Position numbers and translations under genes: made by a program. Shown here one piece after another: positions 20,945 to 35,763 of a stretch of DNA of 64,000 nt (positions within the stretch are counted from its first letter, which is position 1; each line of letters opens with the position of its first letter). The notes under the pieces were generated by a model that worked only from the letters and a program-made list of their open reading frames with translations, searched no databases and had not been told where the DNA came from. Source of the DNA: a phage. The stretch is taken from the sequence record OZ346212.1; one strand, written 5' to 3'.

Positions 20945-21271
20945 AAGCACATAGCCGCCAGATCTCAGAATTTACGTACGCTCACCAGTCTATAGCCTGC
21001 TAAGTATTTATTCCAACCATAGAATAACGGAATAGTCAATACCTGCATAAAATAATTATTCGTGTAAACTGCATAACATAAATCGGCTAGGATGTCAACA
21101 TTTTTCGTAAACAGCTCGAAATTATAACGGTGAGTTATAATAAACAGAGAAATCTTTAGTCGTCTAATGTTTACTGTACATTACTATACTGACTGGAATC
21201 ATTAGATGACTAAGAGAAAGATAAGAAATCATTAACAATGCAATTGTTTTATTCGTAACAATAAGGCAACT

Positions 21272-21563
21272 ATGCAAACGGATGGCATGGCGCGACGGAG
21301 TCGCGACATAATATAAAAGCAGTAACCATCACCCCCGTGATAGTTTGTCTGCAAACTATTAATCAGATCATAGTTGCCTTGTATTTAGTTAATCATGACA
21401 TAACAAGCAAGGCAACTATAGATCTGCTAATAGTTGCCCTGCTTTTATATTATGTCATAGATTATTAGCCTGTTAATTGTTAGTCAGTCAAATCAACAAC
21501 GTTATCATTTCAGTCTTTATTGTTGTTGATCGTTATTGTTATCATGCAAACGAATGGCATGGC
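21272..21563. repeat. dyad-symmetry cluster bounded by 20-bp direct repeats
   Basis: ATGCAAACG(G/A)ATGGCATGGC at 21272 and 21544; between them AGGCAACTAT in both orientations, ATGACATAA/TTATGTCAT and CGCGAC/GTCGCG palindromes. Confidence 0.6.
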
Positions 21564-21936
21564 TTATCATTTTTGAGTAAACAATCTATACGTGAACAGT
21601 GAGGCAAGTTAGCAGCCGATAGATTAGATATTAACCTGCAGACTTCTGACCGTCTAGACGTCTAAACGCCCACACAACAAGGATTATACATACAATACTG
21701 AATGTAAACAGGGCCGCAAAAATGCTACCATACCACAGATTGTAAATTTTTCATGCAGCACTTGACAAAGAGGAGAACTTAATTTTATCAGGATAGGCAA
21801 GAATGTCAAGGCATGACTGCTCACTAAACAAGCAAACAGTCATGTGTGGGAGGTAAGTGATTGTGGTGGTAGGAAATTTAGTTGAAAGATGTGTTATAGG
21901 TGCTTCCAGCACTTTAGCCGGGCAGCTAATTGTGTG

Positions 21937-22152
21937 TCAGTCCAGCGGTTCATCCTCTACTTCACTGAAATCAATGTTCATGGTCTCTTCCCAACCATCG
22001 ATCTCAGCACAAGAGTGGAGTTCTTTAGGGTTTACTCCTAAAGCCTCAGCAACAGAGTCTATATTTAACACCTCTGGCAGGTATGATTCATCAAATTCAA
22101 GGTAAATCAGGCCACGAGTGTTGTCAGCTCCACCAAATATTTCTATCTTCAT
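21937..22152 (-). CDS. hypothetical acidic protein
   Basis: ORF track. Confidence 0.45.
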   Translation of the reverse strand: MKIEIFGGADNTRGLIYLEFDESYLPEVLNIDSVAEALGVNPKELHSCAEIDGWEETMNIDFSEVEDEPLD

Positions 22153-22273
22153 AAAATCTCCTCTGGAAATGAGAGTGTGAACAGGGTTTTATACGTCCCA
22201 ATGCACAGGAATTATGCACGTTTTCCTCTTCAGGCCATGCTTTAGCATGAGGAACCTGTGTGGGCTCGGTGCT

Positions 22274-22486
22274 TCATAGTCTACCACCTCTGAACTCTTC
22301 GTGCTCAGGCATAATAGAGAACCAGATATCTACGATGTCCTCCCACGTCAGGTCATCAGCCTCAGGATCTGTCTGGGACGAAGATGAAGAGTCCTCAGAA
22401 TCTAAGTTTTCCTCTTTAACTGGCTCATCCAAGGGACATATGGTCACTCCTTCGGATGTCTCTTCAGATGCATGTGTGTTGATCAT
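22274..22486 (-). CDS. hypothetical acidic protein
   Basis: ORF track. Confidence 0.45.
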   Translation of the reverse strand: MINTHASEETSEGVTICPLDEPVKEENLDSEDSSSSSQTDPEADDLTWEDIVDIWFSIMPEHEEFRGGRL

Positions 22487-22780
22487 GTTCCACCCGTGAG
22501 TATTCCGGCAACAGCTGCTATGGACGTAATGATCATCAGGATCACCACTAAAACTTCGGACAATGTTCTCATTGTGTACTCCATATTCTACAAACTATGT
22601 GTGGATACTATCACTGGATCGGTAATGTGTCAACAGAAACGCCGCGAGGGTTTGGTTAAAATCCGAGCGTATGGTGATTTGGGTCAAAACGGACGTGCGT
22701 TCTCGCTACGCTCGAAAGAGAGATTTGTTTGTAGGAAGCTCTTAAACGCTCTGTAATGAGATTATCTGTCCAAGGTATGC

Positions 22781-22812
22781 AATCGTGCACCAGATAAAGA
22801 AAAGGACGCCAC
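22781..22812 (-). terminator. intrinsic terminator (minus strand)
   Basis: AGGACGC-loop-GCGTCCT followed on minus strand by TTTCTTTAT. Confidence 0.55.
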
Positions 22813-22846
22813 AGAGCGTCCTAGGTGTCTTAAATTTGATATTTTG

Positions 22847-23158
22847 CTATACCCATGAGGGCTTATCAAGGTTGGAGTAGCTGAAAGGTGTCAAAAGGTG
22901 ACTGTCAAAATCTCTCAAACTATCTAAATCTTTTTCCTCGTCCTGACACCATCTGTGCCTACATTTATTGTTGTAGTGCATAGAATGCATAGCGTTCTGC
23001 AACTTAACAGGTACAAGTGATTCAGGAGTAGATAGTATTGTTGGGTATGCCAGAATCACCTCAAACAGTGGAAACACATCGAAACTAAAGTCTACCTCTG
23101 CAGAGGTTGATGGCATATAGGAGTATTTAGCCGCCTTTGTAGACATAATCCACCTCAC
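22847..23158 (-). CDS. hypothetical protein
   Basis: ORF track. Confidence 0.5.
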   Translation of the reverse strand: MRWIMSTKAAKYSYMPSTSAEVDFSFDVFPLFEVILAYPTILSTPESLVPVKLQNAMHSMHYNNKCRHRWCQDEEKDLDSLRDFDSHLLTPFSYSNLDKPSWV

Positions 23159-23481
23159 ACAGGTTTGATAATACCTTTACCGAATAATTCTTCGTATCTA
23201 ATCTTATCCGGATCCCACTCTTGGATAATTTCGAAGACAATATCCAACCCAGGGATAATCACTTCTCCAGTGTCAAGTTTGGCAAGAACAAAACCAGAAG
23301 GCTGAATGGTTTCCCAGTTGCGCCGATTGGAATAGAAGACCTCGAAAATATCGCCGACCTTTATCTGTTGATCAAGATGTTCAAGATTCTCTTTCATATA
23401 GACGCAGCGGATTTTTCGTGCAGGCCATAGACCACCTGCATCACGTTCATTTAGCTCTTTTACAGTAATCGGTATACCCAT
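23155..23481 (-). CDS. hypothetical protein
   Basis: ORF track; ATGA coupling. Confidence 0.5.
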   Translation of the reverse strand: MGIPITVKELNERDAGGLWPARKIRCVYMKENLEHLDQQIKVGDIFEVFYSNRRNWETIQPSGFVLAKLDTGEVIIPGLDIVFEIIQEWDPDKIRYEELFGKGIIKPV

Positions 23482-23534
23482 CTCAAATCTCCTTCATAGA
23501 TAGTAAAGAGGGGCCCAAGCCCCCCTCTTTGTCA

Positions 23535-23840
23535 TCATTCTACAGAGCGTTTGAACAGAATGTCTGCCTCAGACATGTGCTCAACCTCTTCTTCGATTTT
23601 AGCGCGACGTTTTTCAGCCTCATAGCGAATATCGAACTCGGTAGCCACCAGAGATTTGATGAATTTAGGAGAATACAGGTGATCCTGCTTCTCAACGAGA
23701 ATGATATCCTTAATGGCATCTTTCAGATCTTTAATCTGAAGTTGGAGTTCTACCAGTTCTTCGATTGTTTTGCGAAGGCGATCACGCTCTGCAGTGTCAG
23801 AAGGAAGAGAGGTGAACAGTTCAACTTTAGATTTAGCCAT
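23535..23840 (-). CDS. hypothetical protein
   Basis: ORF track. Confidence 0.5.
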   Translation of the reverse strand: MAKSKVELFTSLPSDTAERDRLRKTIEELVELQLQIKDLKDAIKDIILVEKQDHLYSPKFIKSLVATEFDIRYEAEKRRAKIEEEVEHMSEADILFKRSVE

Positions 23841-23868
23841 AGTAAGAGTCTCCTTATGTTGTTTTAAA

Positions 23869-24120
23869 TTAACGTTCTACAAAAATACCGTTCAGTTCAA
23901 TAACCAGGAATTTCTGGTCTTCACTATCGTCTCGTGCCAGCACCTCACAGACGTATCGGTCATCCCCATCATCATCGCAGTCAAATACAAGACTGAGGAC
24001 TTTATCATGGTAAACCTTCGCCACTACCGCCTCGTAAGTATTGCCGATTGTGAATCCAAGATAATCTCCGATGCATTTGACAACAACATGGTCTCCAGCA
24101 TTTAAGTCAATCTTCGTCAT
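23869..24120 (-). CDS. hypothetical protein
   Basis: Start moved to ATG at 24120 after RBS AAGGAG. Confidence 0.5.
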   Translation of the reverse strand: MTKIDLNAGDHVVVKCIGDYLGFTIGNTYEAVVAKVYHDKVLSLVFDCDDDGDDRYVCEVLARDDSEDQKFLVIELNGIFVER

Positions 24121-24247
24121 TACTGCGCTCCTTGGGTAATAATACTGTATGTAAAACTTTAACCAGAGATGTGAATAACGCCCCAAAACACACCGATAGC
24201 GCTAAAACAGACAAGGCCATCATTAAAGCTTCAGTAAAATCAGTCAT
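24107..24247 (-). CDS. small membrane protein (46 aa)
   Basis: Not in ORF track; RBS AGAGGTGAG; hydrophobic core. Confidence 0.4.
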   Translation of the reverse strand: MTDFTEALMMALSVLALSVCFGALFTSLVKVLHTVLLPKERSNDED

Positions 24248-24275
24248 TCCTCACCTCTTGTTAGCCACTATACTA

Positions 24276-24539
24276 TCATTTATCCTTTTCGTCAAGAACT
24301 TTTTTAAATCTTTCAGGGATATCTCCCGTTCTTAGATAGTTCATGACCTCGCAAGGTTCCCACTTGAATTTCTTACAGAGCAGGGCGGCTGAGATTGTTT
24401 CATTGCGAAAAGAAAGGATATTAATATCCCACTCTGAGAACCCCAACTTCCGAAGGGTAGCTACAGAAATCCTCACCGCAACCCAGCAGCAAAAACATGC
24501 AACAAACGCCACTGCTACAACCCACATCAGGATGTTCAT
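24276..24539 (-). CDS. membrane-anchored protein
   Basis: N-terminal TM helix. Confidence 0.5.
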   Translation of the reverse strand: MNILMWVVAVAFVACFCCWVAVRISVATLRKLGFSEWDINILSFRNETISAALLCKKFKWEPCEVMNYLRTGDIPERFKKVLDEKDK

Positions 24540-24628
24540 ATAAGCACCTTACTGAAATACAAGACACAGTGTTAAGGTTACTGACCAGCAAATAATTAGC
24601 AGGACCATTGCAACCTTGGCAAGATTTA

Positions 24629-24916
24629 TCATAGTGCCTCTAAGATTTCATATCCTTCAGGTCGAAATACAAGCCACTCCGTGGCTCCGTTTGGTCGATA
24701 CGCTTTATACAGAACAACCTGATCTCGGCACATGCACATGGCTACATAGTTTTCATCCACACCTGCAGCCTGCATTGCATCTTCTTCTCCGGCAACTGCT
24801 TTGCTTACAACTTCCTTGGTAGGTAGGTGTGCGATCAGCTCGTCACCATCATTAATTCCAAAATGACTGAGTTCTCCATTGGTATCTTTAATCTTAATCT
24901 TAACCAGATCTTTCAT
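24629..24916 (-). CDS. hypothetical protein (small acidic family)
   Basis: ORF track. Confidence 0.5.
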   Translation of the reverse strand: MKDLVKIKIKDTNGELSHFGINDGDELIAHLPTKEVVSKAVAGEEDAMQAAGVDENYVAMCMCRDQVVLYKAYRPNGATEWLVFRPEGYEILEAL

Positions 24917-25245
24917 TAGTCTTTCTCCAGGTTCAAAGGTCCTAAGATTTCATATGCCAGATTAGAAGTTACCAGAGGGTCTTCTGCATCTTTAGTATTG
25001 TACCACCCGTGAATAACCAGAGTCCCACTTTGTTTCATATCCAACTGGAACTGTTCTGCAGTTTCCTCATCCAGCTCCAAGATTTCCATAAGGTATTTGA
25101 TGTTAGGAAGGTATGCAGCTGTTACAGTTCCCTCCACCAAACCTTCGGGCCAACCTACATCCGGATGACAAGTAGGAACCAGGTTGGTCAACTTAATGGT
25201 GTACGCTTTTTCTGCACGAGCCTTCAGTAACGGGTCAATCTTCAT
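24916..25245 (-). CDS. hypothetical protein
   Basis: ORF track. Confidence 0.5.
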   Translation of the reverse strand: MKIDPLLKARAEKAYTIKLTNLVPTCHPDVGWPEGLVEGTVTAAYLPNIKYLMEILELDEETAEQFQLDMKQSGTLVIHGWYNTKDAEDPLVTSNLAYEILGPLNLEKD

Positions 25246-25595
25246 TATTCGTCCTCCTCTTCGGTGCCTGCTTCCAGTAATAAGTTAAGAATATCTTCTG
25301 CACAAGGCTCATAGAACTCTTGGCCTTCATTATCGATGATTTTGTAGTCATCTCCACGAATAATCAGGGGATCACTCTCAAAATTATCGAGACCTTTAAC
25401 AACGACAACACGATCGATTGCCATCATTGTAAGAACTTTATCGACATCTTCCTCTGCTACACCATACTGCAGCAGAATGTCTTTGGTAGGAGGAACAGCA
25501 TCCACCACAACGCCGTTACCAAAACCTTCTGGAAGTTTAGCTAAAATATCTTCCGGAACCACATTCACATCAAAACCGGTAATTTCTACTTTCAT
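25245..25595 (-). CDS. hypothetical protein (MK(V/I)(E/K)I family)
   Basis: ORF track. Confidence 0.5.
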   Translation of the reverse strand: MKVEITGFDVNVVPEDILAKLPEGFGNGVVVDAVPPTKDILLQYGVAEEDVDKVLTMMAIDRVVVVKGLDNFESDPLIIRGDDYKIIDNEGQEFYEPCAEDILNLLLEAGTEEEDE

Positions 25596-25856
25596 TTACA
25601 GCACCTCTTCGTCAACTACTTCATAAAAATGGCCTGGGATTGCAATAGCGTTCTCACCTTCACCTGCAAACACAGTTCCGTCAAGAATCAACATCATAAG
25701 AATTTCTGTAATATCCTCTTCCGGAACGTTGCCAAAACCTTTAATCAGCTCGTAGGTTGGAATATTTACATCTAAGATGTCACCATCTTTAGAACGGAAA
25801 TCAACACCGTCCTGAATCTCTGCCGTTTCAAGGTTTTTCAATTTAATCTTCATCAA
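25596..25856 (-). CDS. hypothetical protein (MK(V/I)K family)
   Basis: ORF track. Confidence 0.5.
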   Translation of the reverse strand: MMKIKLKNLETAEIQDGVDFRSKDGDILDVNIPTYELIKGFGNVPEEDITEILMMLILDGTVFAGEGENAIAIPGHFYEVVDEEVL

Positions 25857-25932
25857 TCGGTCTCCTGTCTTGTTAAGATGAAGGTATTATTTCACACAGG
25901 GTTGGCGTTGTCAACACCTGTGTGCAAGAAAA

Positions 25933-26328
25933 TTACTGAAACAGTGCGGATAAATTACCTTCTGGTGGGAACTTATCTGCCAAAAACGGTGTTAGCACAG
26001 TAGCCTTCTGAAGATCTGGGGTCCACTCGTTGTTCAGAACATCCCAGTAGTACGCAATGTTGCTGTGTGGGTGCCGCATTACGAACTTTTTCCCTTCGTA
26101 GTCGTCTGAAACCTCTACAGAAGAAATAACAACAGAATCTTCAAGGGTTTCTTCATAGAAAGATCCCCCTTCAAATTTCCAACGAGATGCAAGAGCCCCT
26201 GCCTTGAACGCTGCAGATAACGGACTGTCGGCAAGAACATACATTTCTTGCACTCTGTCGCTGCGATCTTTGCTTCTTACGTTGTATACAGTATCTGAGC
26301 TATACTCAACACGGTATAGGCTTACCAT
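25933..26328 (-). CDS. hypothetical protein, paralog of 28140..28538
   Basis: Shared FV(M/I)(R/V)HP.S...YW.....(E/T)WTP block. Confidence 0.55.
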   Translation of the reverse strand: MVSLYRVEYSSDTVYNVRSKDRSDRVQEMYVLADSPLSAAFKAGALASRWKFEGGSFYEETLEDSVVISSVEVSDDYEGKKFVMRHPHSNIAYYWDVLNNEWTPDLQKATVLTPFLADKFPPEGNLSALFQ

Positions 26329-26660
26329 TACCGCACCTCCTCAATAACTTCCACATCTGAACCTACCACAAATGCAAAAGGACAGGTTTCATGAAAGACA
26401 TCTGGATCGCCGCCAAGCTTGCTAACAATCTCTCCACCACTAATAAACACAAGCTCACCGATATTCATCAGATTGCTGAAATAGTAACCATAATGATTAA
26501 AGAATGCAGCAGGGTCAGGTAGACTGGTAGCCTCAAGCACTACATCGGTTGAGGTTACTTTCTTATCATAACCTCTCGCCTTTTGAGATGCAAGATCTGC
26601 AGAATCCTCAGGAGACCGGAGATGCACAGGAATTGTTTCACCAATAAAGCGTACTTTCAT
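26328..26660 (-). CDS. hypothetical protein
   Basis: ORF track; start uncertain (26660 or 26687). Confidence 0.45.
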   Translation of the reverse strand: MKVRFIGETIPVHLRSPEDSADLASQKARGYDKKVTSTDVVLEATSLPDPAAFFNHYGYYFSNLMNIGELVFISGGEIVSKLGGDPDVFHETCPFAFVVGSDVEVIEEVR

Positions 26661-26664
26661 ATTA

Positions 26665-26928
26665 TCACCCAACAACCATAGCTTCAAAAGGAGTCATGAA
26701 CGAATAAACGGCATCATCATCTGCTTCAGGGAATGCTCCCAAAGACTTCATATCTGAACCCTTGACAAATACAAGGTTTTGATCAAAGGCTTCTTGGGGG
26801 TCAATCCGATACATATTTCGTAGAATATCGCTTACCTCCTCATCAAGAGGTGAGTATGCTGTGCACGTTTTTCCGATCAAGCTTTGAGAATCAGGGTATC
26901 CACCTGAAGTTTTAAAATAAACAATCAT
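26665..26928 (-). CDS. hypothetical protein
   Basis: ORF track. Confidence 0.5.
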   Translation of the reverse strand: MIVYFKTSGGYPDSQSLIGKTCTAYSPLDEEVSDILRNMYRIDPQEAFDQNLVFVKGSDMKSLGAFPEADDDAVYSFMTPFEAMVVG

Positions 26929-27019
26929 ATAGTATCACCTCTGGTAAGAGATTGGGATTCCTTTCCCACAAATAATTACAAATCTTCCTTATCGAGGAAG
27001 TATGCTAATCCAAGCAGGA

Positions 27020-27289
27020 TTATTCCTCTACAATCTCATACACATCAGGAGTTACAATCAACTCTTCTCCGTTACCCGGTGCAACAAACACCACCAAACC
27101 TTCAGGTGTGTGCTTTTTAGCCATCTCGATAACATCTTCTCGCAGAGCTGGCTCCATCAGATCAAAACCTTCACCCAGGGCATCACGAACCACCTTCATA
27201 TAGTCAACTGGTTGTGCTTCAACAATCATGCCTTCAACCAGTCCACAGTTTTTGTCTGCCAGCTCAGTTTTGAATAATTTAATTTTCAT
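27020..27289 (-). CDS. hypothetical protein (MKIK family)
   Basis: ORF track. Confidence 0.5.
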   Translation of the reverse strand: MKIKLFKTELADKNCGLVEGMIVEAQPVDYMKVVRDALGEGFDLMEPALREDVIEMAKKHTPEGLVVFVAPGNGEELIVTPDVYEIVEE

Positions 27290-27315
27290 TTAGAGGTCTC
27301 CTCAATTATTTGATA

Positions 27316-27417
27316 TTAATAGCCGTAACCTAACACATTAACTACAACTGCGATTGCAAACATAATTTCAAAGCATGCAATCTCTACATTTGGGACTAAT
27401 TTCTTAATCACACCCAT
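27316..27417 (-). CDS. small membrane peptide (33 aa)
   Basis: Not in ORF track; RBS GGAGAATGAGG; hydrophobic. Confidence 0.4.
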   Translation of the reverse strand: MGVIKKLVPNVEIACFEIMFAIAVVVNVLGYGY

Positions 27418-27426
27418 TGTAGCACC

Positions 27427-27747
27427 TCATTCTCCAAAGTCAATCTTTACTTTGCCTTTCCCCTTACCTTTCTTTCCACCGCATTTAGCCAGCTGACGTG
27501 CTGCAACATCTACCATACGGTCAGTTGCCTCGTAAGCATCACTGCCTTTAGCCTTGGCAATAACTTCTTTTCCAGAATTGTCAAAAATGAACGCCATAAC
27601 TTCCTGGTGATCATTTTCAACTTTTACACTTACACGTGCATAGTTAACAGAGGGATGTAAACGCTCCAGCTTGGACATTTTGCGGGAAATAAAAGATACC
27701 ATACCTTCTGTGATTTCTACATTGTTGCCAGTGATTTCAATTTGCAT
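27427..27747 (-). CDS. hpf: ribosome hibernation promoting factor (HPF/RaiA family)
   Basis: MQIEITGNNVEITEGM...KLER...YEATDRMVDVAARQLAK aligns along its length with E. coli HPF as I recall it (MQLNITGNNVEITEAL...KLEQ...YAAIDGLIDKLARQLTK). Confidence 0.8.
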   Translation of the reverse strand: MQIEITGNNVEITEGMVSFISRKMSKLERLHPSVNYARVSVKVENDHQEVMAFIFDNSGKEVIAKAKGSDAYEATDRMVDVAARQLAKCGGKKGKGKGKVKIDFGE

Positions 27748-27796
27748 AACGTGTTCCTTTTAAGGAAGAGGGAATAACTATCTCTCTTTGAAAACA

Positions 27797-27825
27797 ATGA
27801 TACTAAATCTGAAGCGTTGTGTCAA
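27797..27825 (-). promoter_or_regulatory. sigma70-like promoter for hpf (TTGACA-N17-TATCAT)
   Basis: Read on minus strand. Confidence 0.5.
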
Positions 27826-27831
27826 CAGTTT

Positions 27832-28122
27832 TTACAGCTTGTTGTCGATAGTTTTTAAAATATCCACAGCAAGATCTGCCATTTTTCGAACATACTCTGC
27901 AAACTCAACAGGATCCTTGATCAAAGAATTCACAGGGTCGTACCCTAGAGCGTTTAAAATGGCTGCAGCATCTACAACCTTCTCATCATTTGCGAAGATC
28001 TCTCCGTCAAACTTGTAGGTCTATTTTGAGTCAACCTTAGCAGAGCAGGGTTTGTCCATGCTTGTTACACCATCGTCTTTAAACTCTCCTGCGTTATCAA
28101 TATTTAGAATTAAATCCATCAT
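27832..28122 (-). pseudogene. ORF interrupted by in-frame TAG (33 aa + amber + 62 aa)
   Basis: ATG 28122..28120; TAG at 28023..28021 in frame; same frame stays open to TAA at 27834..27832. Confidence 0.4.
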
Positions 28123-28139
28123 GGTGACACCTCACTGTT

Positions 28140-28538
28140 TCAGTTTAGCTTTTCTTCAACAACCCCATAACTTGGGGCAGAGTCAAGAGCTTTCTGGTTT
28201 AAAAGTGGCGTAGCAGAATCTGCAAACGGTGTCCAAGTTTTTGTTCTGGAATTCCAGTAATGCTTCACTCTGGAATCTGGATGCACTATAACAAAAACTT
28301 TTTCACTTGTCAACACATTAATTTCTTCTACACCCTTGCTGATAATTTCTCCGTCATAGCCCCCAGTCTGGTATCCTTCGTACCAGGTTCTTGCATAGGC
28401 ATAGCCAGCCTGCCAGCATGCAGCCTCCTCCGAGGTGGAGACTACGTAGAAGTCTTTCTCAAATTCCGGAATACGCCCTTGCTTTACGCTCCAAGCTCCG
28501 CGAATTTTCATTGTTACTTTGAAAAGCTTGTTCTTCAT
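28140..28538 (-). CDS. hypothetical protein, paralog of 25933..26328
   Basis: Shared motif block. Confidence 0.55.
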   Translation of the reverse strand: MKNKLFKVTMKIRGAWSVKQGRIPEFEKDFYVVSTSEEAACWQAGYAYARTWYEGYQTGGYDGEIISKGVEEINVLTSEKVFVIVHPDSRVKHYWNSRTKTWTPFADSATPLLNQKALDSAPSYGVVEEKLN

Positions 28539-28539
28539 A

Positions 28540-28794
28540 CTACCGCTCTACAATCTCTACGTCTGTTCCTACACCGAAGGCATAGTAATGTTCTTCCCCA
28601 AAGTAATACTTGGGGACACCCGCTTTGATCAGATCTAACCCGCGAATAAATACCACACCGTGTGATACAGTGGAATGCTTCTGACGCACAGGATCGTTGT
28701 CAGGCAACCATTCAAAGTACACCGCAGGTACAACCTTTCCCTTCAGGAAGGATTGTCCCAAGTAGACGTTAGAATCAAGAATTTTAACCTTCAT
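28540..28794 (-). CDS. hypothetical protein (MKVK family)
   Basis: Paralog of 28784..29011 and 32434..32667. Confidence 0.5.
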   Translation of the reverse strand: MKVKILDSNVYLGQSFLKGKVVPAVYFEWLPDNDPVRQKHSTVSHGVVFIRGLDLIKAGVPKYYFGEEHYYAFGVGTDVEIVER

Positions 28795-29011
28795 TCTCGT
28801 CCTCCACTATCTCTGCATCCTCACCAAGGGCAAAGTTGTAGGTCCACTGGCTGTCAAAGCAGTCCTGAGATGCACCAGCGGCAATAAGATCTGCACCTTT
28901 TATTTTTAAAAGGTCAGGATAATCTTCGTTAGGGATAGCGGTAAACACTTTCCCCACTAAGGGCTCCTGACCAATATAGAAGCTTGAATCTAAAACTTTA
29001 ACTTTCATCAA
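28784..29011 (-). CDS. hypothetical protein (MKVK family)
   Basis: ORF track. Confidence 0.5.
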   Translation of the reverse strand: MMKVKVLDSSFYIGQEPLVGKVFTAIPNEDYPDLLKIKGADLIAAGASQDCFDSQWTYNFALGEDAEIVEDENEG

Positions 29012-29295
29012 CGGTCTCCCTCAGGCGGTTGTGGGACGTAAACACTGTTACGAATATCGTCAGCAGTGTAGTAATAAGTGGTTCCAACCCTATCTCGGGC
29101 TGCAATGTACTCTGCTATACCAACAAGTGCCATTGATTTGGTGGCGTATCTTCCCCACTCGTTAGCTCCCCAGTAGAATTTAGACCAGTAGGGAATAAGA
29201 CCGAACAAATATACCTTTTGACGAACTTCCCAGTAAGTGCCTTTTCCGACAAGTTTAAACTCTACTTCACTACTGTTAATCTTTTTCATTATCAA
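29008..29295 (-). CDS. hypothetical protein
   Basis: ORF track; ATGA coupling. Confidence 0.5.
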   Translation of the reverse strand: MIMKKINSSEVEFKLVGKGTYWEVRQKVYLFGLIPYWSKFYWGANEWGRYATKSMALVGIAEYIAARDRVGTTYYYTADDIRNSVYVPQPPEGDR

Positions 29296-29588
29296 TCTCC
29301 CTCTACCGTGGTCGGATTGTCAGTAAGAAATTGAGCATTGGCTGGAGGCACGCCTGACATTTTCCACACAACCATAAGTTTATAACCAGGCACTCTATTA
29401 AGTGCAGATCGAGTAGAGTTTGTGCACGTATACTTTCGCTTTCCAAACCCGTTCTCCATCATAATCCAGTACCCAGTATCTTTGTCACCAGGTATCGGTA
29501 GACCACCTTCATCAACCCACTGAATTGACCACGGCACGATGGCTACAGCTTTATATTTAAACTTTTTAAACCACTCAAAAAGTTTCAT
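29292..29588 (-). CDS. hypothetical protein
   Basis: ORF track. Confidence 0.5.
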   Translation of the reverse strand: MKLFEWFKKFKYKAVAIVPWSIQWVDEGGLPIPGDKDTGYWIMMENGFGKRKYTCTNSTRSALNRVPGYKLMVVWKMSGVPPANAQFLTDNPTTVEGD

Positions 29589-29888
29589 AATTCAGCCCCG
29601 CATAGACATAATCACTATAAATAGGCAAACAATGAATCCGAATGCCACGCCACCCATAAACGTTAATATTGATGCAATCATAGTCAATCAGCCTCGCCTG
29701 GCAACTCTTCTACCTTAACATGCCGAAAAGTGTTACCGTAATGGTTGATCCATGACATCAGCTCACTTTCTTGCTCTTCCTCTGGGATGAACTCTCGAAT
29801 ACTGACAAGTTTTAAGAAAACCTAATCACAATCTGCACCCATTCTACCAGACAGACAATAGTGCTTCATAAAAACCCTCCCGCCCGGT

Positions 29889-30083
29889 TTAGAATATTGC
29901 TTCTTCCATTGCGCCTGAGAGCAACAAAGAGGTGATCTGGCTAACATTCATCTCAGACTCTACTTCCTCCCCTTTGAAAGGTTCGCGGCAGAATAGGACT
30001 GTTTCAGGACTTTTACTTCGAACAATATAATACAAATCATTCAATGTGTTGTAGTAATAAGTGTTAAAACGTAAGTTTTTCAT
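29889..30083 (-). CDS. hypothetical protein
   Basis: ORF track. Confidence 0.45.
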   Translation of the reverse strand: MKNLRFNTYYYNTLNDLYYIVRSKSPETVLFCREPFKGEEVESEMNVSQITSLLLSGAMEEAIF

Positions 30084-30367
30084 TTTCTAGTCCTCTTCTT
30101 AGATTTTTGGGGAGAAACGCTTTCTGCAATACGAGACAGACGTTCTTCTGAAGCCTTACCTACTCCAGGTTTTTTGAGTGGATTATCTTTATGACCACAA
30201 TCCAACTGGATATTGGATACCTCTCCAACTTTGTAAGTCAATTCTAGCAAAAGGTTGTCGTCCTTGTCAAATGTTTTTACGATAAATTTTTTATCGTTCT
30301 CCTGAACTTCATATCTGGTACCTGCAGTATACAGCATGGTGCCATCAGCATAGGATATCCAGATCAT
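30080..30367 (-). CDS. hypothetical protein
   Basis: ORF track. Confidence 0.5.
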   Translation of the reverse strand: MIWISYADGTMLYTAGTRYEVQENDKKFIVKTFDKDDNLLLELTYKVGEVSNIQLDCGHKDNPLKKPGVGKASEERLSRIAESVSPQKSKKRTRK

Positions 30368-30711
30368 TGAGCCTCCTTTTGCTGCAACAGCATTAACTCT
30401 TTGTTAGAGATCTTTACTGCTGTTTTTATTGTTCCATCTTCACGAAACCACGACCAGAACTCTACAGTGTCACCACTATCAAGTAAAGCATGCCCATGGT
30501 AAAAATCTTTGTCCTTAGACAGTTTCTCATCTATATCTGCATCAACACATTCGTGATCCAGAGCATTTTGCCTGAACGCATCGGTTATGCCAATGCACGC
30601 CTTGCTCTCAAGACTGGTATATCCGATATCTTTTAATTCAGTTTCCCAAGTCCAGTACCCTATAAAAGCTAAAACAGCTACCCACAGTAATAACGTTTTA
30701 ATCTTTGGCAT
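30364..30711 (-). CDS. secreted/membrane-anchored protein
   Basis: N-terminal signal-like hydrophobic segment. Confidence 0.5.
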   Translation of the reverse strand: MPKIKTLLLWVAVLAFIGYWTWETELKDIGYTSLESKACIGITDAFRQNALDHECVDADIDEKLSKDKDFYHGHALLDSGDTVEFWSWFREDGTIKTAVKISNKELMLLQQKEAQ

Positions 30712-30773
30712 TCTCTCTACCTCTTTCTTAGTTTATTTCACTATGGCACATCCTTTGTGCCATATCTCAACTA

Positions 30774-31244
30774 CTACTTAAATAGTAGTTCAAAATAGTG
30801 CAAAATTAACAGAAGTTGAACTACACCTAGTGCAACGGCGAGTATGTTAATCTTAGAATCGAAAAACTTCTTAACTTTTACTCTAAAAGGTTCCTTAATG
30901 TCCTTTACGATCCTATCTATAGATGACCTCATATCTCTGATTACCATCCTGAACATTAAAGACGGATGCTCCCCCATCTCCGTAACGGAATCGAAAACAT
31001 ACTCTCTTCGGTCATAAGGGCCGCCAGCTCTGCGTATTAACCTCTCCACAGAGACCTCGAACGTCACACCTGTAACGTAATCATCTATAACAAGTCGTGA
31101 CGGGTCTTTACCTTTACTATCAAGAGGTATCAAAGTTATCTTTCCAGATTTTGTTAAAATTTCCCCTTTTTCAAGCAAGGTGTACCAATGCTCTCTGCCA
31201 AGACTGTTGAGGCACGTTTTTACATATTTAACAAACATCGTCAC
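30774..31244 (-). CDS. hypothetical protein with C-terminal TM helix
   Basis: ORF track. Confidence 0.5.
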   Translation of the reverse strand: MTMFVKYVKTCLNSLGREHWYTLLEKGEILTKSGKITLIPLDSKGKDPSRLVIDDYVTGVTFEVSVERLIRRAGGPYDRREYVFDSVTEMGEHPSLMFRMVIRDMRSSIDRIVKDIKEPFRVKVKKFFDSKINILAVALGVVQLLLILHYFELLFK

Positions 31245-31444
31245 CCCTCATCGCACGTCTGATATAACCACTCTATAAAATCTTGATACCATTCGCCCTC
31301 TGAGCGCTCCGTAGGCCAATAATCTTCACCCTCTCGTGCATTAAAATCTGAGTATTCAACTTTCCACTCCTTTACCAGCTCGTGGAGAAGGTTTTCAGCC
31401 TGCTCTAAAGATTTATTTTTTACCATTGCTGTCTCCTTTTTCAA
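31241..31444 (-). CDS. hypothetical protein
   Basis: ORF track. Confidence 0.5.
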   Translation of the reverse strand: MKKETAMVKNKSLEQAENLLHELVKEWKVEYSDFNAREGEDYWPTERSEGEWYQDFIEWLYQTCDEG

Positions 31445-31509
31445 GATAGTTATACATCAGAACTGCACCACCTAAGATGGCTACCAGTAACAATATCCCA
31501 GATAGCATC

Positions 31510-31662
31510 TCAATAAACATGGCTTGAAACACTGGAAGGTCTCCCTAAATTAACGCACCATTTTAAATACATGCTCTTTTCCCATAAAGGTGCCTGGCTA
31601 AGATCTGCGTAGAACGCAATCTCTTTAAGAACAGTATAGATAGTTTTAGGTGCGGTCTCCAT
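31510..31662 (-). CDS. hypothetical protein
   Basis: Start moved to ATG at 31662 after RBS AGGAAGGAGA. Confidence 0.35.
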   Translation of the reverse strand: METAPKTIYTVLKEIAFYADLSQAPLWEKSMYLKWCVNLGRPSSVSSHVY

Positions 31663-31873
31663 CCCTACTCTCCTTCCTGATATTCTTGTAGTAATCAACT
31701 AGGCACATTATTACGATGAAGATAACAACAGGCCAAAAAGGTGCAGCAGTGATGATGGTGATAAAATCATCAAACTTCACCCTTCGTCTGGACACGATGC
31801 ATACACCTGTCAAGAATACCGCTGTTATAACGGACATTACCAGGTAACCTATTAGCACAACATTTATACTCAT
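31646..31873 (-). CDS. two-TM membrane protein
   Basis: Two hydrophobic helices, charged C-terminus; holin-like topology but no adjacent lysin. Confidence 0.5.
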   Translation of the reverse strand: MSINVVLIGYLVMSVITAVFLTGVCIVSRRRVKFDDFITIITAAPFWPVVIFIVIMCLVDYYKNIRKESRDGDRT

Positions 31874-31903
31874 TGGTCCTCCCTTTGTAGGTTAAATTGT
31901 ATA

Positions 31904-32437
31904 CTACAAATGGTCGCTGAGGGTGTCAAGAAAATTATCCCGTTCTTTCTCAGAGTTTTCATGTGTGTAGCTGAAAAACATATCGAGAATAACCTTATTG
32001 ATATATTCCAGCTCCTCTGTGTTCAGATGCTTAGCAGGATCTACAATGACATCCCAAATATCATACAGACCGCACTCATGATACCCATAACGCCACTCAA
32101 TTGTCAAGCTGAGCGGCAAATCTTTACCTTCACAAACAACCTTCCATCTACATATGTTGGTATCTGGTCGTACCTGTGCACGGTACACCTGCACAAAATC
32201 CAATTTGAATTTGAGGTACTCGTCATACAATTTAAGCACAAAGCTCTCGATTTGTGGAGACACTTTTGCAGCAAACTGTGCGTATTCGTACTTGCACTGG
32301 ATGATCTTTCTGCGTTTTGCAGTTAAATTTTTTGCCGCCAGTTGTTCTTCAGTGTATCTCCACCTACGATCAACAAACGCAACAGGGTCTTTGTCCCCAT
32401 AGAGGTCTTCCCAGTTAATCAGAAGCATACCTGTCAC
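31904..32437 (-). CDS. hypothetical protein
   Basis: ORF track. Confidence 0.55.
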   Translation of the reverse strand: MTGMLLINWEDLYGDKDPVAFVDRRWRYTEEQLAAKNLTAKRRKIIQCKYEYAQFAAKVSPQIESFVLKLYDEYLKFKLDFVQVYRAQVRPDTNICRWKVVCEGKDLPLSLTIEWRYGYHECGLYDIWDVIVDPAKHLNTEELEYINKVILDMFFSYTHENSEKERDNFLDTLSDHL

Positions 32438-32667
32438 TCCTCCACAACTTCAAGGCCTTTACCGCCTCGCTCTGGCAGATTACTTAAAGATAGGTAATAC
32501 ATATAATCAGGAGAGATCCTGCCAGACTCTGCACCTGCAGCTAGTAAATCCTTCCCTTTAACCAGGACAACATTCTCGTTTGCAGATAGCCGTTTTGCTT
32601 CCACAATTTTACCAACACAGTCAACCAAGGAAGGGTACCCTAAATCTGTAAGAAATTTAACTTTCAT
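32434..32667 (-). CDS. hypothetical protein (MKVK family)
   Basis: ORF track. Confidence 0.5.
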   Translation of the reverse strand: MKVKFLTDLGYPSLVDCVGKIVEAKRLSANENVVLVKGKDLLAAGAESGRISPDYMYYLSLSNLPERGGKGLEVVEE

Positions 32668-32704
32668 GCTACCTCCTACCTACCGTCCCTGGTAAGATAA
32701 ATTA

Positions 32705-33103
32705 TTACTGAACAGAGCGCGGTGCTGGGAAGGATAACTCTTCTAAAGAGAAGATTTCATTTCCTACCACCCAAGTTGCTGGGTCATCTGGATCAACAGG
32801 TTGGATAATCATTACCTCATCCGCCTCGCACACACGTTTCCCACCCATAGTAGCGTCAGCCACTAACATACGCGGCTCTTCAGAAATGCACAGGTAGCCA
32901 CCTCGGCCCACTGTTCCTTCCACGGGATCCTGCCCTTTGACCACAATGAATACCTTCTCTCCTGTGGCGATATTACTTTTCACACTAACAGTTTGACCAA
33001 CTTTAGATGTACCGATCTTGGTGGCTTCAAACATTAAATCCCGAATTACTGTTGCATAGTTGCCGGACACTTTCTTACCTTCTTTAGTAATCTCAATCTT
33101 CAT
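32705..33103 (-). CDS. hypothetical protein
   Basis: ORF track. Confidence 0.5.
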   Translation of the reverse strand: MKIEITKEGKKVSGNYATVIRDLMFEATKIGTSKVGQTVSVKSNIATGEKVFIVVKGQDPVEGTVGRGGYLCISEEPRMLVADATMGGKRVCEADEVMIIQPVDPDDPATWVVGNEIFSLEELSFPAPRSVQ

Positions 33104-33339
33104 AACCTAGGCTCCTTAAATGAATCTATGTAATCAATTAAATCCCAAGCATCGCGATGGGCTGTCAGAGGGTATACTTCTCCGAGAGGGATCATAGCAA
33201 TAAGTCTATCAAAAACCCAGTCTGGACGCAACATTTTATGGTGATATTCCCACTCACCTTCCACAGATTTTTTCTGAGTGATCAGGATCTCTGTGTAGTG
33301 TTTCGCCTGTCTTGAGTAGATTGAAAATGACTTGTACAT
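33100..33339 (-). CDS. hypothetical protein
   Basis: Start moved to ATG at 33339. Confidence 0.45.
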   Translation of the reverse strand: MYKSFSIYSRQAKHYTEILITQKKSVEGEWEYHHKMLRPDWVFDRLIAMIPLGEVYPLTAHRDAWDLIDYIDSFKEPRL

Positions 33340-33374
33340 AAAGACCCCCTCTTGTTGAAAACAACAATACACAA

Positions 33375-33659
33375 CTACCAGGTTACTGTCAAGTAGGCAA
33401 CCGTATTATTTTTCTCTGGGGAGATGCCAACAACATCTACCTGCAGACCTCCTGCCCTTAAATCTCCAACAATGTGCGGGAAGTAATCTGAGAGATGCGA
33501 GGGTAGATTTATCGAAAATCCGCACCCCAGAAAGCCTGCTAACGCTTTATTTTGTATCTCCCCTACAATCGCATCATAAATGGAGTTAAGCTCGTCAGGG
33601 AGCGTTACAGGACGTTTTAGCGCTAACTGGTGTAATTTGTCCTTAGCACTCATTTTCAT
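33375..33659 (-). CDS. hypothetical protein
   Basis: Start ATG 33659 overlaps upstream TGA (ATGA). Confidence 0.5.
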   Translation of the reverse strand: MKMSAKDKLHQLALKRPVTLPDELNSIYDAIVGEIQNKALAGFLGCGFSINLPSHLSDYFPHIVGDLRAGGLQVDVVGISPEKNNTVAYLTVTW

Positions 33660-34189
33660 TTCAGGTCTACCTCTGGTGGTGCCAACCACATAAATGGCGG
33701 CAAGCCTAAACGGTTTTTCTTATCCCACACAAAATATGCATATGCTTGCCCGTCAGTTCTGCCATTTGATTGAAAAGATGGACGCTTAGATATTGTGATC
33801 ACAGTGGTAGGTGCATTATCAAGCCACCATTCAAATCTGGCTTTGCTTTCCAGAAAATTAAGACGCAAAAGCATAATAACTACGTCAGCATCTTTCAACG
33901 CCTTGTCTACAAACTCACGAGCCAAACTGTATGGTGGGTTGGTGATAATACAGTCAACATGGTTGTATTCTGTATTCAGATAGTCAACACCTTCTTGGAT
34001 TTCTCCCCATGCAGATCCTAACGGCATACGGGAGTAGAACACACCTGAGGCACTATTCCTGCAAGGCTCTAAGTAGGTCCAGTCTTCTGGGAACGGAATA
34101 AGGTCATACAGCCCTTCTGCACACCACTCCGGTGTCACATACTCATCGTAGGCGTTACGTTGTTCATCAGGTTTTCGAGCACAAGTCAT
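33656..34189 (-). CDS. DNA N6-adenine (or N4-cytosine) methyltransferase, small phage type
   Basis: Catalytic motif IV in VDCIITNPPYSLA. Confidence 0.6.
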   Translation of the reverse strand: MTCARKPDEQRNAYDEYVTPEWCAEGLYDLIPFPEDWTYLEPCRNSASGVFYSRMPLGSAWGEIQEGVDYLNTEYNHVDCIITNPPYSLAREFVDKALKDADVVIMLLRLNFLESKARFEWWLDNAPTTVITISKRPSFQSNGRTDGQAYAYFVWDKKNRLGLPPFMWLAPPEVDLK

Positions 34190-34240
34190 GCAAATCTCCA
34201 GATCATAAAAGCCCTCCGAAGAGGGCTTTAGAATTAATGT

Positions 34241-35290
34241 TTAAGCTTCTTCGACAATTCCTGCACCCAGGATTTTTTCATTGAGCTCTTTTGCTGTTTT
34301 AATAATATTGTCCACCAGACGCTTGCGAGTCTTATCTTTTACCTTAACCTCTTCACCGCCGTTCAGGGTTGTCTTCAATTGGGACAGAATGTCTTGAAGT
34401 TCAACGACAGAGAATCGCTGCAGATCTTCTGAGGTAATCTCGCCTAAGGCAATCTTAACGGTCTCACCACTTTCCATCTGCAGGTTCAGGAACACAGTGT
34501 GAACATCACCTTTCGAACCACCCGCTTTTGCAGATTCAACAGCATGAACTAGCTCATCTAAAGAGGTGCACTGGTGAATCTCCGGAAGACCTGCTTCACC
34601 TAGCACACCTTCTTCATCACCTTTTGCCAAAAGCTTTTTAGGTTTTTGTCCGTTCTGGATGCGTTGTATGTTGCCTTCATCCAGAATGATAGCTCCAGTT
34701 CGAGCTGCCAGCTCCTCTCCGTCCAACCACACTTCGCCACCCGCTGTGATGGATGCGATCTCATCTTCTGTCAGCACCCAACCGTAGTATTTTTCGATCA
34801 GGCGTTCGAAACGTTTTTTCCAGTAGCTGACCTGAGTATTCATGTTCACACCATTGCCATAAGTGCCGCCTTGATAGTAGTGGAACATAAACTCTGTGTC
34901 CGGAGCCACAGTGCGTTCTTTGCAACCCAGCCATAGGATTGTTCCAGCAGAGCAGCACATCCCTTCAGCATGTGCAACAACGCTTGCCTGAGACTCGCGG
35001 AATGCCTGTAGATAAGCCATTGCAATGTGCACGCAACCCCCAGGGCTATTGATGATCACACGAATGCTTTCTTCCGGCTGAGCCATACGGATCGTCTGCA
35101 GACGAGACATATGATCCTGCAGGTCCTCCAAATCGTCGATATAAAGAACGTGGTCAACAACAGGTGTTGGGTAGCTGTATGTTTCCATAATACCACCCGG
35201 CATACCAAACATTTTATTACTCATAGGTTCGAAACCGTTCTGTTTTTCTTTCATGCCGTGTACCATGGTTCTGCGAGGTGTTAAATTCAT
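34241..35290 (-). CDS. ClpP-family serine peptidase with C-terminal extension
   Basis: IINSPGG, GMCCSAG (Ser), MFHYYQGG (His) parallel ClpP INSPGG / GQAASMG / MIHQPLGG; ~130 extra C-terminal residues. Confidence 0.7.
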   Translation of the reverse strand: MNLTPRRTMVHGMKEKQNGFEPMSNKMFGMPGGIMETYSYPTPVVDHVLYIDDLEDLQDHMSRLQTIRMAQPEESIRVIINSPGGCVHIAMAYLQAFRESQASVVAHAEGMCCSAGTILWLGCKERTVAPDTEFMFHYYQGGTYGNGVNMNTQVSYWKKRFERLIEKYYGWVLTEDEIASITAGGEVWLDGEELAARTGAIILDEGNIQRIQNGQKPKKLLAKGDEEGVLGEAGLPEIHQCTSLDELVHAVESAKAGGSKGDVHTVFLNLQMESGETVKIALGEITSEDLQRFSVVELQDILSQLKTTLNGGEEVKVKDKTRKRLVDNIIKTAKELNEKILGAGIVEEA

Positions 35291-35350
35291 GAGAAATCCT
35301 TAATATTGGAAGTTGAAAGCTATTTATTTAAACCTGATTCACATTTACCT

Positions 35351-35662
35351 TTATTTAGCAATCACTATGGAATACTTACGATTGTCAGAAGCATCACAAC
35401 TCAATGATTGCCAGTCTACCACATACCACGTATCATTGTCAACAATTACTTTATCGCCTGTTCTGTAGCAAGTGCTGCTTTCAATAATTCGAGACTCGAT
35501 AAAGAATCTGTGTCGGCGCTCACGTAGCAACGCTAAGTTAATTATATTACCACCGCTGTCCTTGGTCCACACATTCTTGGATCCCTTATTTGCCAAAATT
35601 GTCTCGCCGTTATAGACAAACAGGCAGTATATTTTATTCAGTTTCTCTTGTATTGTAGCCAT
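35351..35662 (-). CDS. hypothetical protein
   Basis: ORF track. Confidence 0.5.
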   Translation of the reverse strand: MATIQEKLNKIYCLFVYNGETILANKGSKNVWTKDSGGNIINLALLRERRHRFFIESRIIESSTCYRTGDKVIVDNDTWYVVDWQSLSCDASDNRKYSIVIAK

Positions 35663-35763
35663 ACTGTCCTTCTCTCTGTTTTGTCCGATAATAATATCTA
35701 AAGCTTACCTATTTGTCAACAACTGTTTTAGATATTTAAGGGTGGAATAACCACCCTTCTGTA

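Follow-up and report, generated by a model that had tools for sequence, protein, structure and literature searches.

A block of small genes in a phage of the genus Vequintavirus holds three separate families of paralogs, not the single multigene family for which it was taken in the initial annotation. The block lies at 22847-33659, on the minus strand, in a 64,000-nucleotide stretch of DNA from sequence record OZ346212.1; this whole stretch is referred to here as the window. Paralogs can be detected for 12 of the 36 genes in the block, and they fall into families that we call A, B and C. We consider it very probable that the block is a lineage-specific array of small genes in which three paralog families of old origin are found, with an SH3-like fold predicted for two of them.

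Paralogs within the small-gene array

Families were delimited by an all-against-all blastp comparison of the called genes, together with iterated hmmsearch, a search with profile hidden Markov models (HMMs), against the 473 window open reading frames (ORFs) of at least 40 amino acids. Genes are named here by their left coordinate (Table 1). Family A has five members: 28784, 28540, 32434, 26665 and 26328. Family B likewise has five, of which 25596, 25245, 24916 and 24629 form a head-to-tail run and 27020 stands apart. Family C is a pair, 25933 and 28140, whose products are 28% identical over 111 amino acids and are both full-length members of phrog_7379. The paralogy of this pair had been proposed from the sequence, and it holds. 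The remaining 24 genes are singletons. Since blastp and the three family HMMs link only these 12 of 36 genes, and in three families, the whole 11 kb cannot be one multigene family.

Significant similarity is nevertheless plain within families, with blastp E-values down to 7e-15. One control comes from outside the window: when an A profile is built without any window sequence, from distant relatives only, its hits among the 473 ORFs are the five A genes and no others, at E-values of 2e-24, 4e-20, 1e-17, 2e-8 and 6.5e-7, and the next window ORF follows at E=0.15. In family B, the iterated HMM recovers four genes at E-values of up to 6e-4. For 24916, the weakest of the B genes, the score is 17.4 bits; none of 1000 shuffles reaches it, their maximum being 6.8.

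The initial annotation had gathered seven genes into one group by their shared MK(V/I)K start. It was right to single out 28540, 28784 and 32434, which belong to A, and 25245, 25596 and 27020, which belong to B, but it merged the two families, missed 26328 and 26665 of A and 24629 and 24916 of B, and wrongly included 32705. This last gene (32705-33103) was ruled out as a member of either family: it scores 2.4 bits with the A profile and 1.2 bits with the B profile, within the range of 1000 shuffles, and it has a PHROG of its own, phrog_5748. Also rejected was the idea, taken from a shared 'DSxWTYxF' motif, that the orthologue of magaca_18 is a degenerate A copy (2.4 bits). Beyond the window, no A, B or C member was found in the remaining 72 kb of the genome of Escherichia phage magaca (about 136 kb in total). 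An unannotated minus-strand ORF of magaca, antisense to the MoxR ATPase gene (L003, 21952-22221), matches the A profile at E=0.007 and 11.6 bits, and is probably noise.

These relationships are recorded in part already. PHROGs joins three A genes in phrog_5009 (28540, 28784 and 32434, at 4e-27 to 6e-37) and the C pair in phrog_7379, both labelled 'unknown function'. It separates 26328 (phrog_13661) and 26665 (phrog_13920) from the remaining A genes, and places each B gene in a separate family, so that the B relationship is unrecorded there. The rV5 genome paper makes no mention of paralogs, duplication or gene families, and a search for literature on Vequintavirus paralogs found nothing relevant.

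The array that carries these families belongs to an rV5-like Escherichia coli myophage. The interval 22847-33659 is 99.2% identical to magaca over its full length and matches 123 phage records, nearly all of them Vequintavirus, with at least 80% coverage in 116 of the 123 and nearly all at 90-99% identity. GC skew (guanine-cytosine skew) shows that coding is on the minus strand between about 22 kb and about 59 kb, and the array forms the distal portion of a long leftward transcription unit. Its coding sequences correspond one-to-one with those annotated in magaca, CM1, FV3 and WM. The tight packing noted at the outset is borne out, with an unbroken run of minus-strand genes that overlap by ATGA at 4 junctions, by a single base (TAATG/TGATG) at 4 others and over a longer stretch at 5. 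A Pfam scan of the array proteins matched only one, a ribosome hibernation promoting factor (HPF) homologue, and left the remaining proteins without a Pfam family; a PHROG could be assigned to every array protein tested, nearly always with the label 'unknown function'. Rfam has no match inside the array, and a DNA repeat search over 21000-36000 gave only short, chance-level matches and no PeSL-like cassettes.

In the window 34 of the 36 genes are intact, and the other two each carry a TGG to TAG change (Table 1). The orthologue of magaca_18 is intact in magaca, CM1, Bas59, FV3 and WM; that of magaca_24 is intact in magaca, CM1, FV3 and WM, and lies within a deletion in Bas59. The two amber changes could be nonsense mutations in dispensable genes, a sign of growth on a suppressor host, or sequencing errors. 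Among the singletons, 24107-24247, 24276-24539, 30364-30711 and 31646-31873 contain hydrophobic stretches that, judged by eye, resemble membrane spans.

Table 1. Coordinates of the array, its paralogs, its neighbours and its predicted signals (window positions)
Feature	Position	Strand	Details	Basis
Whole array	22847..33659	-	36 small coding sequences, 33-174 amino acids (aa)	ORF list; one-to-one with magaca_2 to magaca_37
Family A member	28784..29008	-	74 aa, isoelectric point (pI) 4.1; structure-model sequence	Families search
Family A member	28540..28794	-	84 aa	blastp against 28784 E=7e-15, 41% identity; phrog_5009 4e-27
Family A member, isolated copy	32434..32667	-	77 aa	phrog_5009 8e-36; HMM E=4e-20
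Family A member	26665..26928	-	87 aa	HMM E=3.8e-5 in first round; 1.7e-8 with distant-relatives-only profile
Family A member, long inserts	26328..26660	-	110 aa	HMM E=1.3e-4 in first round; 6.5e-7 with distant-relatives-only profile; blastp against 28540 E=5e-4
Family B tandem run	24629..25853	-	25596-25853 (85 aa), 25245-25595 (116 aa), 24916-25245 (109 aa), 24629-24916 (95 aa)	
Family B member	27020..27289	-	89 aa; structure-model sequence	Iterated HMM
Family C member	25933..26328	-	131 aa	blastp against 28140 E=4e-9; phrog_7379 2e-66
Family C member	28140..28538	-	132 aa	phrog_7379 8e-74
HPF/S30AE homologue	27427..27747	-	Between the two A-A-C groups	Pfam PF02482 4.2e-15
Dispensable, variable sub-segment	28226..32031	-	3.8-kb clean deletion in EduardKellenberger (Bas59)	blastn junction
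magaca_18 orthologue, broken	27832..28122	-	96 aa; TGG to TAG at codon 34	Window 28021-28023
magaca_24 orthologue, broken	29684..29869	-	61 aa; TGG to TAG at codon 16	Window 29822-29824
Sigma-70-like promoter	25886..25914	-	TTGACA, 17 nt, AATAAT, with TG; gap upstream of B tandem run	Annotated in phage Gotham
Sigma-70-like promoter, 11/12	27797..27825	-	Upstream of HPF gene	Consensus match; Gotham annotation
Sigma-70-like promoter	29677..29704	-	Upstream of 29292-29588	Consensus match; Gotham annotation
Sigma-70-like promoter	33364..33392	-	Near array head	Consensus match; Gotham annotation
Intrinsic-terminator-like hairpin	22803..22822	-	Closes the array	Annotated terminator in Gotham
Dam-like methyltransferase	33656..34189	-	Upstream flank, conserved	Annotations
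ClpP-like protease	34241..35290	-	Upstream flank, conserved; anchors synteny with PVP-SE1	Annotations

Predicted folds of A and B and their distant relatives

AlphaFold2 was run on the family alignments of A (28784) and B (27020). The A model reached a predicted local distance difference test score (pLDDT) of 89.8, with strands at residues 2-5, 21-26, 33-37, 56-61 and 65-69 and one short helix. The B model, at a pLDDT of 92.9, has strands at 2-5, 22-27, 66-69, 76-79 and 84-88, and three helices at 30-60 are inserted between its strands 2 and 3. Both show the same order of five strands and the same SH3/KOW/PsaE matches in the PDB, for example 2vkn_A, 4zn3_A, 7k9b_A and 2akl_A. As the models are confident and agree in strand order and in these matches, both families are predicted to be SH3-like five-strand small barrels. 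No A or B member matches the Pfam SH3, KOW or PsaE families, even at E-values of up to 1, and no solved structure related by sequence to A, B or C was found.

The two families resemble one another in further ways. Both begin with a strand of the form MK(V/I)K(V/I/L) and end with one of the form (Y/A)E(I/V)VE. Across A and B the strands of the barrel are conserved, and the loop that joins strands 2 and 3 is extended by inserts of 0 to about 30 residues. These inserts are helical in B, and three A members have inserts at this same loop, among them 28540 and 26665 (about 20 amino acids). The annotated start of 26328, MKVRF, lies at 26660. Sequence comparison did not establish homology of A and B, being at no point significant in hhalign; what they share is the predicted fold. 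Taking fold, termini, insert position and adjacency together, we lean somewhat towards a common origin of the two families.

Beyond the array, the families differ in how far they reach. A word-indexed search of 5.8 billion proteins returned 36 clusters for A, 44 for B and 4 for C, essentially all of them from Vequintavirus-like contigs. An exhaustive HMMER search with the A profile found 41 representatives among 1.84 billion proteins. Some 33 of these are distant proteins of 63-87 amino acids, with the consensus MKVKLLNDGGY...GKVVEA...I.G.ELI.AGA...F...Y.F..G.E.EVIEE. A (K/I)G-x-(D/E)L(I/L)-x-AGA motif is highly conserved across distant phages. Relatives of A fall in phrog_5009, 13367, 7345 and 8603, all of unknown function, and in no Pfam family; the distant ones bridge phrog_5009 and phrog_13367. 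One of them, P0104, has one match per record in seven records of Citrobacter, Proteus, Aeromonas, Morganella, Pseudomonas and Pantoea phages. Another, P0032, is encoded in lambdoid E. coli prophages, in a group of about ten small ORFs flanked by the Q antiterminator and the holin. A few relatives are fusions of two or three domains (P0095, P0097 and P0120). P0095 has an additional C-terminal domain that matches phrog_2652/11651.

Structural comparison widens this circle. A Foldseek search of BFVD with the A fold retrieved many uncharacterised small phage proteins, including some from Cronobacter phage CS01, Citrobacter phage Merlin and RB49, and the CM1 orthologue of 26665 is itself a structural match to the A model (template modelling score, TM, 0.81). 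One could go further and imagine A and B as one phage-specific SH3-like binder scaffold, held in ten copies in Vequintavirus, with the loop between strands 2 and 3 rebuilt for different host targets in the manner of a 'monobody-like' library. Such a scaffold would have spread, as single copies and as fusions of two or three domains, through virulent and temperate phages of Proteobacteria. We think this rather improbable.

Selection, turnover and origin of the array

Within the genus the families are stable. FV3 and WM, which are separate species, carry the orthologues in the same order and in the same copy numbers, five A, five B and two C; the five B genes are present in Bas59 as well. Against FV3 and WM, the Nei-Gojobori ratio of non-synonymous to synonymous substitution rates (dN/dS) is 0.02-0.22 for every A, B and C member, which shows that all are maintained by selection. 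The products of 27020 (B) and 25933 (C) are 95-100% identical in about 118 records, the count for 25933 being 119, and that of 28784 (A) mostly 90-95% identical. The most divergent A allele between species is 28540, with 77% amino acid identity to the CM1, FV3 and WM alleles and a dN/dS of about 0.2. It belongs to a stretch, at about 28.5-32.4 kb, where the most divergent alleles of the array are found, together with 29008 (72%), 29292 (61-64%), 31646 (54% to FV3) and 31904 (51% to FV3).

Much of this stretch is absent from EduardKellenberger (Bas59), where a clean deletion has left the 5' portion of 31904 fused with the 3' portion of the C member 28140. Twelve genes are lost, two A copies and the greater part of a C copy among them, and no second copy of any of the 12 was found in the complete genome of Bas59. 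Two of the lost genes appear to be ones named in rV5, where gp129, of 78 amino acids with two transmembrane segments, was proposed as the holin, and gp133 was prominent in virions (PMC3606486). Going by size and annotation, gp129 appears to correspond to 31646-31873 and gp133 to 30774-31238. Both genes are missing from Bas59, which is viable without them, and hence they cannot be essential. In the BASEL annotation another gene is the putative holin.

Copy number changes in other ways too. In metagenomic Vequintavirus contigs (L012 and L013) the two tandem A genes are replaced by one chimera of 70 amino acids, P0012, in which an N-terminus of the 28784 type is followed by a C-terminus of the 28540 type; this is the product that would be expected of unequal recombination. 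Contig L013 is also without four further array genes. Another protein, P0028, combines an N-terminus of the lambdoid P0032 type with a C-terminus of the 28784 type. Chimeric A proteins suggest recombination between paralogs, and possibly between types of phage.

The duplications that founded the families are ancient: identity between paralogs on core columns is 17-46%, and at the DNA level no similarity is left. The initial annotation had described a family of duplicated and diverging genes. Duplicated and diverged small genes do exist here, some of them in tandem, but their duplications are old and, as their dN/dS indicates, the paralogs are not fast-evolving within the genus. Not every copy need have arisen in place. 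The core of 32434 is 51% identical to that of lambdoid P0032, against 17-33% to the paralogs in its own genome, and horizontal acquisition therefore rivals duplication in situ for this gene. Elsewhere, gene order hints at a segmental duplication of three genes: in the order of transcription A-A-C occurs twice, as 28784, 28540, 28140 and as 26665, 26328, 25933 (permutation P=1e-4). The identities, however, do not fit a simple duplication of an A-A-C block, in that 28784 and 28540 are mutual closest relatives.

Outside the genus the content of the site changes. In PVP-SE1, a Salmonella phage of the sister genus, about 26 small genes (gp154-179) lie downstream of ClpP and the methyltransferase. 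A single one of these is annotated as resembling a gene of rV5 and the block is otherwise unrelated; no A, B or C member was found at this syntenic site. The block is thus lineage-specific. It is also partly dispensable and variable in gene content, as the Bas59 deletion and the collapsed tandem A genes attest, and in these respects the initial annotation is supported.

Some observations concern the surroundings of the array and the records that contain it. To its left, about 20950-21780 is largely non-coding and rearranged relative to close relatives. Within it, a 171-bp piece at 21607-21777 matches Gotham and Bas59 in opposite orientation and runs into the terminal repeat of 459 bp with which the annotated Gotham record ends. 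The same region contains perfect inverted repeats of 18 nt, at 21305-21322 and 21439-21456. Further, 18 GenBank records labelled 'Campylobacter phage ...' (MG0656xx; C. jejuni) share about 95-98% identity with the present lineage of E. coli phages across the whole array. Their Campylobacter host labels look doubtful.

Possible functions and comparison with known systems

Our best guess is that the array has a host-directed accessory role. It is a guess drawn from several features together: small acidic proteins, a fold of the docking type, promoters of host type, lineage specificity, partial dispensability and a prophage homologue in an accessory position. The A and B proteins are 70-116 amino acids long and most are strongly acidic; those of B have pI values of 4.1-4.7 and net charges of -7 to -21. 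Matches to sigma-70-like promoters are in excess, at 48 against 32.4 +/- 5.3 in shuffles, and seven matches at 11 of 12 positions are all on the coding strand. Intergenic among the sites are three 11-of-12 matches (27825, 25914 and, outside the array, 35719) and a 10-of-12 match at 29704; the others lie in coding sequences or outside the array. Most of the predicted signal sites in the array coincide with promoters or terminators annotated independently in phage Gotham, and the rV5 paper reports 33 E. coli-type promoters across that genome.

The most likely mechanism, in our view, is that host RNA polymerase transcribes the array from these scattered promoters, presumably early in infection, and that the products act as small stoichiometric binders docking on host macromolecules. 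Different paralogs might have different partners, and the proteins would tune the infected cell rather than serve as components of the virion. Such genes would be beneficial in nature and at least partly dispensable in the laboratory. Tandem duplication enlarged the families, as in the B run and in 28784/28540, and they may also have grown through the A-A-C segmental duplication and through an A copy acquired from other phages, with copy number still shifting by unequal recombination and deletion. As to the mechanism itself, small proteins that bind host macromolecules, we hold it about as readily as we doubt it.

Several points count against it. For none of the A, B and C members does homology or experiment indicate a partner or phenotype. 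The A homologue of lambdoid prophages sits within the late operon, which does not fit an obligatory early role. The motif conserved across distant phages may reflect a single partner common to the paralogs, and not a diversified set. Profile-profile comparison of A with B in hhalign, using window-only, enriched and deep alignments, in local and global mode, and with or without AlphaFold2 secondary structure, gave P-values of 2e-4 to 0.02 and probabilities of 3-35%, none of them significant. Finally, no Vequintavirus transcriptome was found in the literature, so that the timing of expression is inferred, and the promoters are consensus matches only.

The initial annotation had pointed to host-interaction or anti-defence effectors. 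On the anti-defence reading, the paralogs would be inhibitors of bacterial immune systems that had diverged to cover different systems or variants. We consider this unlikely. Small acidic proteins encoded in a lineage-specific, partly dispensable block with sigma-70-like promoters would suit such a role, as would the A homologue at an accessory position in lambdoid prophages, and counter-defence genes are known from such accessory regions in phages (bioRxiv 10.1101/2023.04.06.535777). Positive evidence, however, is wanting. The members are highly conserved and under purifying selection, and are not hypervariable within the genus; none matches a named family (Pfam; in PHROGs only 'unknown function'); and the Vequintavirinae are reported to be exceptionally susceptible to restriction-modification (PMC8594841).

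The Bas59 deletion provides a natural knock-out, which can be compared with the full arrays of Bas57 and Bas58 through the BASEL plating data. Although it has lost 12 genes, Bas59 behaves as its full-array siblings do, without a phenotype against the 11 defence systems covered, perhaps with redundancy from the paralogs it retains. Plating efficiency is equal in the three phages on 10 of the 11 systems (PMC8594841, supplement). It is similar on EcoKI and EcoCFT_I, about 1e-4 to 1e-3 on EcoRI and about 1 on RexAB, PifA, Old and Tin, and on EcoRV and EcoCFT_II none of the three forms plaques (PMC8594841). Only EcoPI varies, with full-array Bas58 the most sensitive and Bas59 not the worst, and the lysis host range on six strains is identical for all three (PMC8594841). 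The comparison extends to 11 systems and to segment 28226-32031, between phages that differ elsewhere, and Bas59 retains three A and five B copies.

A second alternative, to which we give distinctly less weight, is that A and B are translation or RNA factors, SH3/KOW-like barrels that bind the ribosome or RNA and cooperate with the HPF homologue of the phage. This homologue is conserved across the genus (dN/dS 0.03). Its gene lies between the two A-A-C groups and adjoins the B member 27020, and the structural matches include KOW-like ones. Adjacency within a block of 36 genes is weak evidence, however, and the KOW and ribosomal matches are no better than generic SH3 matches. The pI of 4.1-4.7 of most members would also be unusual for binders of RNA. 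Nor does the name of 27020 help: several GenBank records, those of magaca, WM and ime among them, label it 'sigma 54 modulation factor', yet 27020-27289 has no match to PF02482 (S30AE). The label is a propagated error and seems to have come from the neighbouring true HPF gene at 27427-27747.

It is less probable still, and we think very much so, that the families encode virion-associated or morphogenetic proteins, whether internal, decorating or assisting assembly. The neighbouring 30774-31238 is annotated as a possible structural protein and, taken as gp133 of rV5, would be prominent in virion mass spectrometry (PMC3606486). But this putative structural gene is absent from the viable Bas59, the block is remote from the structural module, which is on the other strand, and the virion proteins named in the rV5 paper include none of A, B or C (PMC3606486). 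Practically no credence is left for a chance resemblance of short MKxK ORFs that are not paralogs or not genes: the A-B link is not significant and 32705 was a false member, but for A, B and C taken separately the idea is refuted by within-family similarity, by the independent profile that recovers exactly five A genes, by shuffle controls that hold, and by a dN/dS far below 1 in all members, with orthologues in more than 115 genomes.

Few coliphages are isolated more often than the rV5-like phages, which also serve in cocktails for biocontrol and therapy, and one third of their genes are still unannotated. Here 12 of 36 ORFans are reduced to three families, two of them predicted SH3-like barrels, which gives screens for function a starting point, and family A is found to reach lambdoid prophages and T4-like phages. 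The propagated misannotation of 27020 is corrected, and the genes that we map to the 'putative holin' gp129 and to gp133 of rV5 prove dispensable. The array is a real but ordinary feature of a well-sequenced genus, and current views of the organisation of phage genomes stand.

The predicted fold has familiar counterparts. SH3-like small-barrel proteins are typically docking modules on larger complexes. With SH3, the KOW domain of Spt5/NusG, PsaE and NdhS, the A and B models share a five-strand barrel and its strand order. They differ from SH3, KOW and PsaE in having no Pfam membership, in their low scores and in the 30-residue helical insert of B, and from SH3 domains in that there is no evidence of proline-peptide binding.

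The layout of the block also has parallels in other phages. Counter-defence accessory regions (bioRxiv 10.1101/2023.04.06.535777) consist, like the array, of small non-essential genes at a fixed position between conserved genes, with turnover between lineages. The array is unlike them in its low variability within the genus, in having no known counter-defence neighbour and in a Bas59 deletion without a defence phenotype. The host-takeover module of Bacillus phage SPO1 (PMC6873191, PMC8208478, PMC8892312) is likewise a cluster of about two dozen small genes with host-type promoters. Both belong to large virulent myophages and both are situated some 1 kb from a terminal repeat, which for the array is known by the Gotham annotation. 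Its individual products are small binders of host proteins, the mechanism proposed here for the array; the two resemble one another in layout and have no sequence relationship. To our knowledge, the SPO1 module has not been described as containing families of paralogs.

The block is best compared with the hyperplastic regions of T4-type phages (PMC4122927, PMC2839356). It differs from them in lacking, over 21000-36000, PeSL promoter/stem-loop cassettes or other DNA repeats, and in a gene order that is almost invariant within the genus. In other respects the two are comparable: both are clusters of small, mostly ORFan genes set between conserved core genes, both have content specific to a lineage, as between PVP-SE1 and the rV5-like phages, and in both there are insertions and deletions between close relatives and many promoters of the sigma-70 type.

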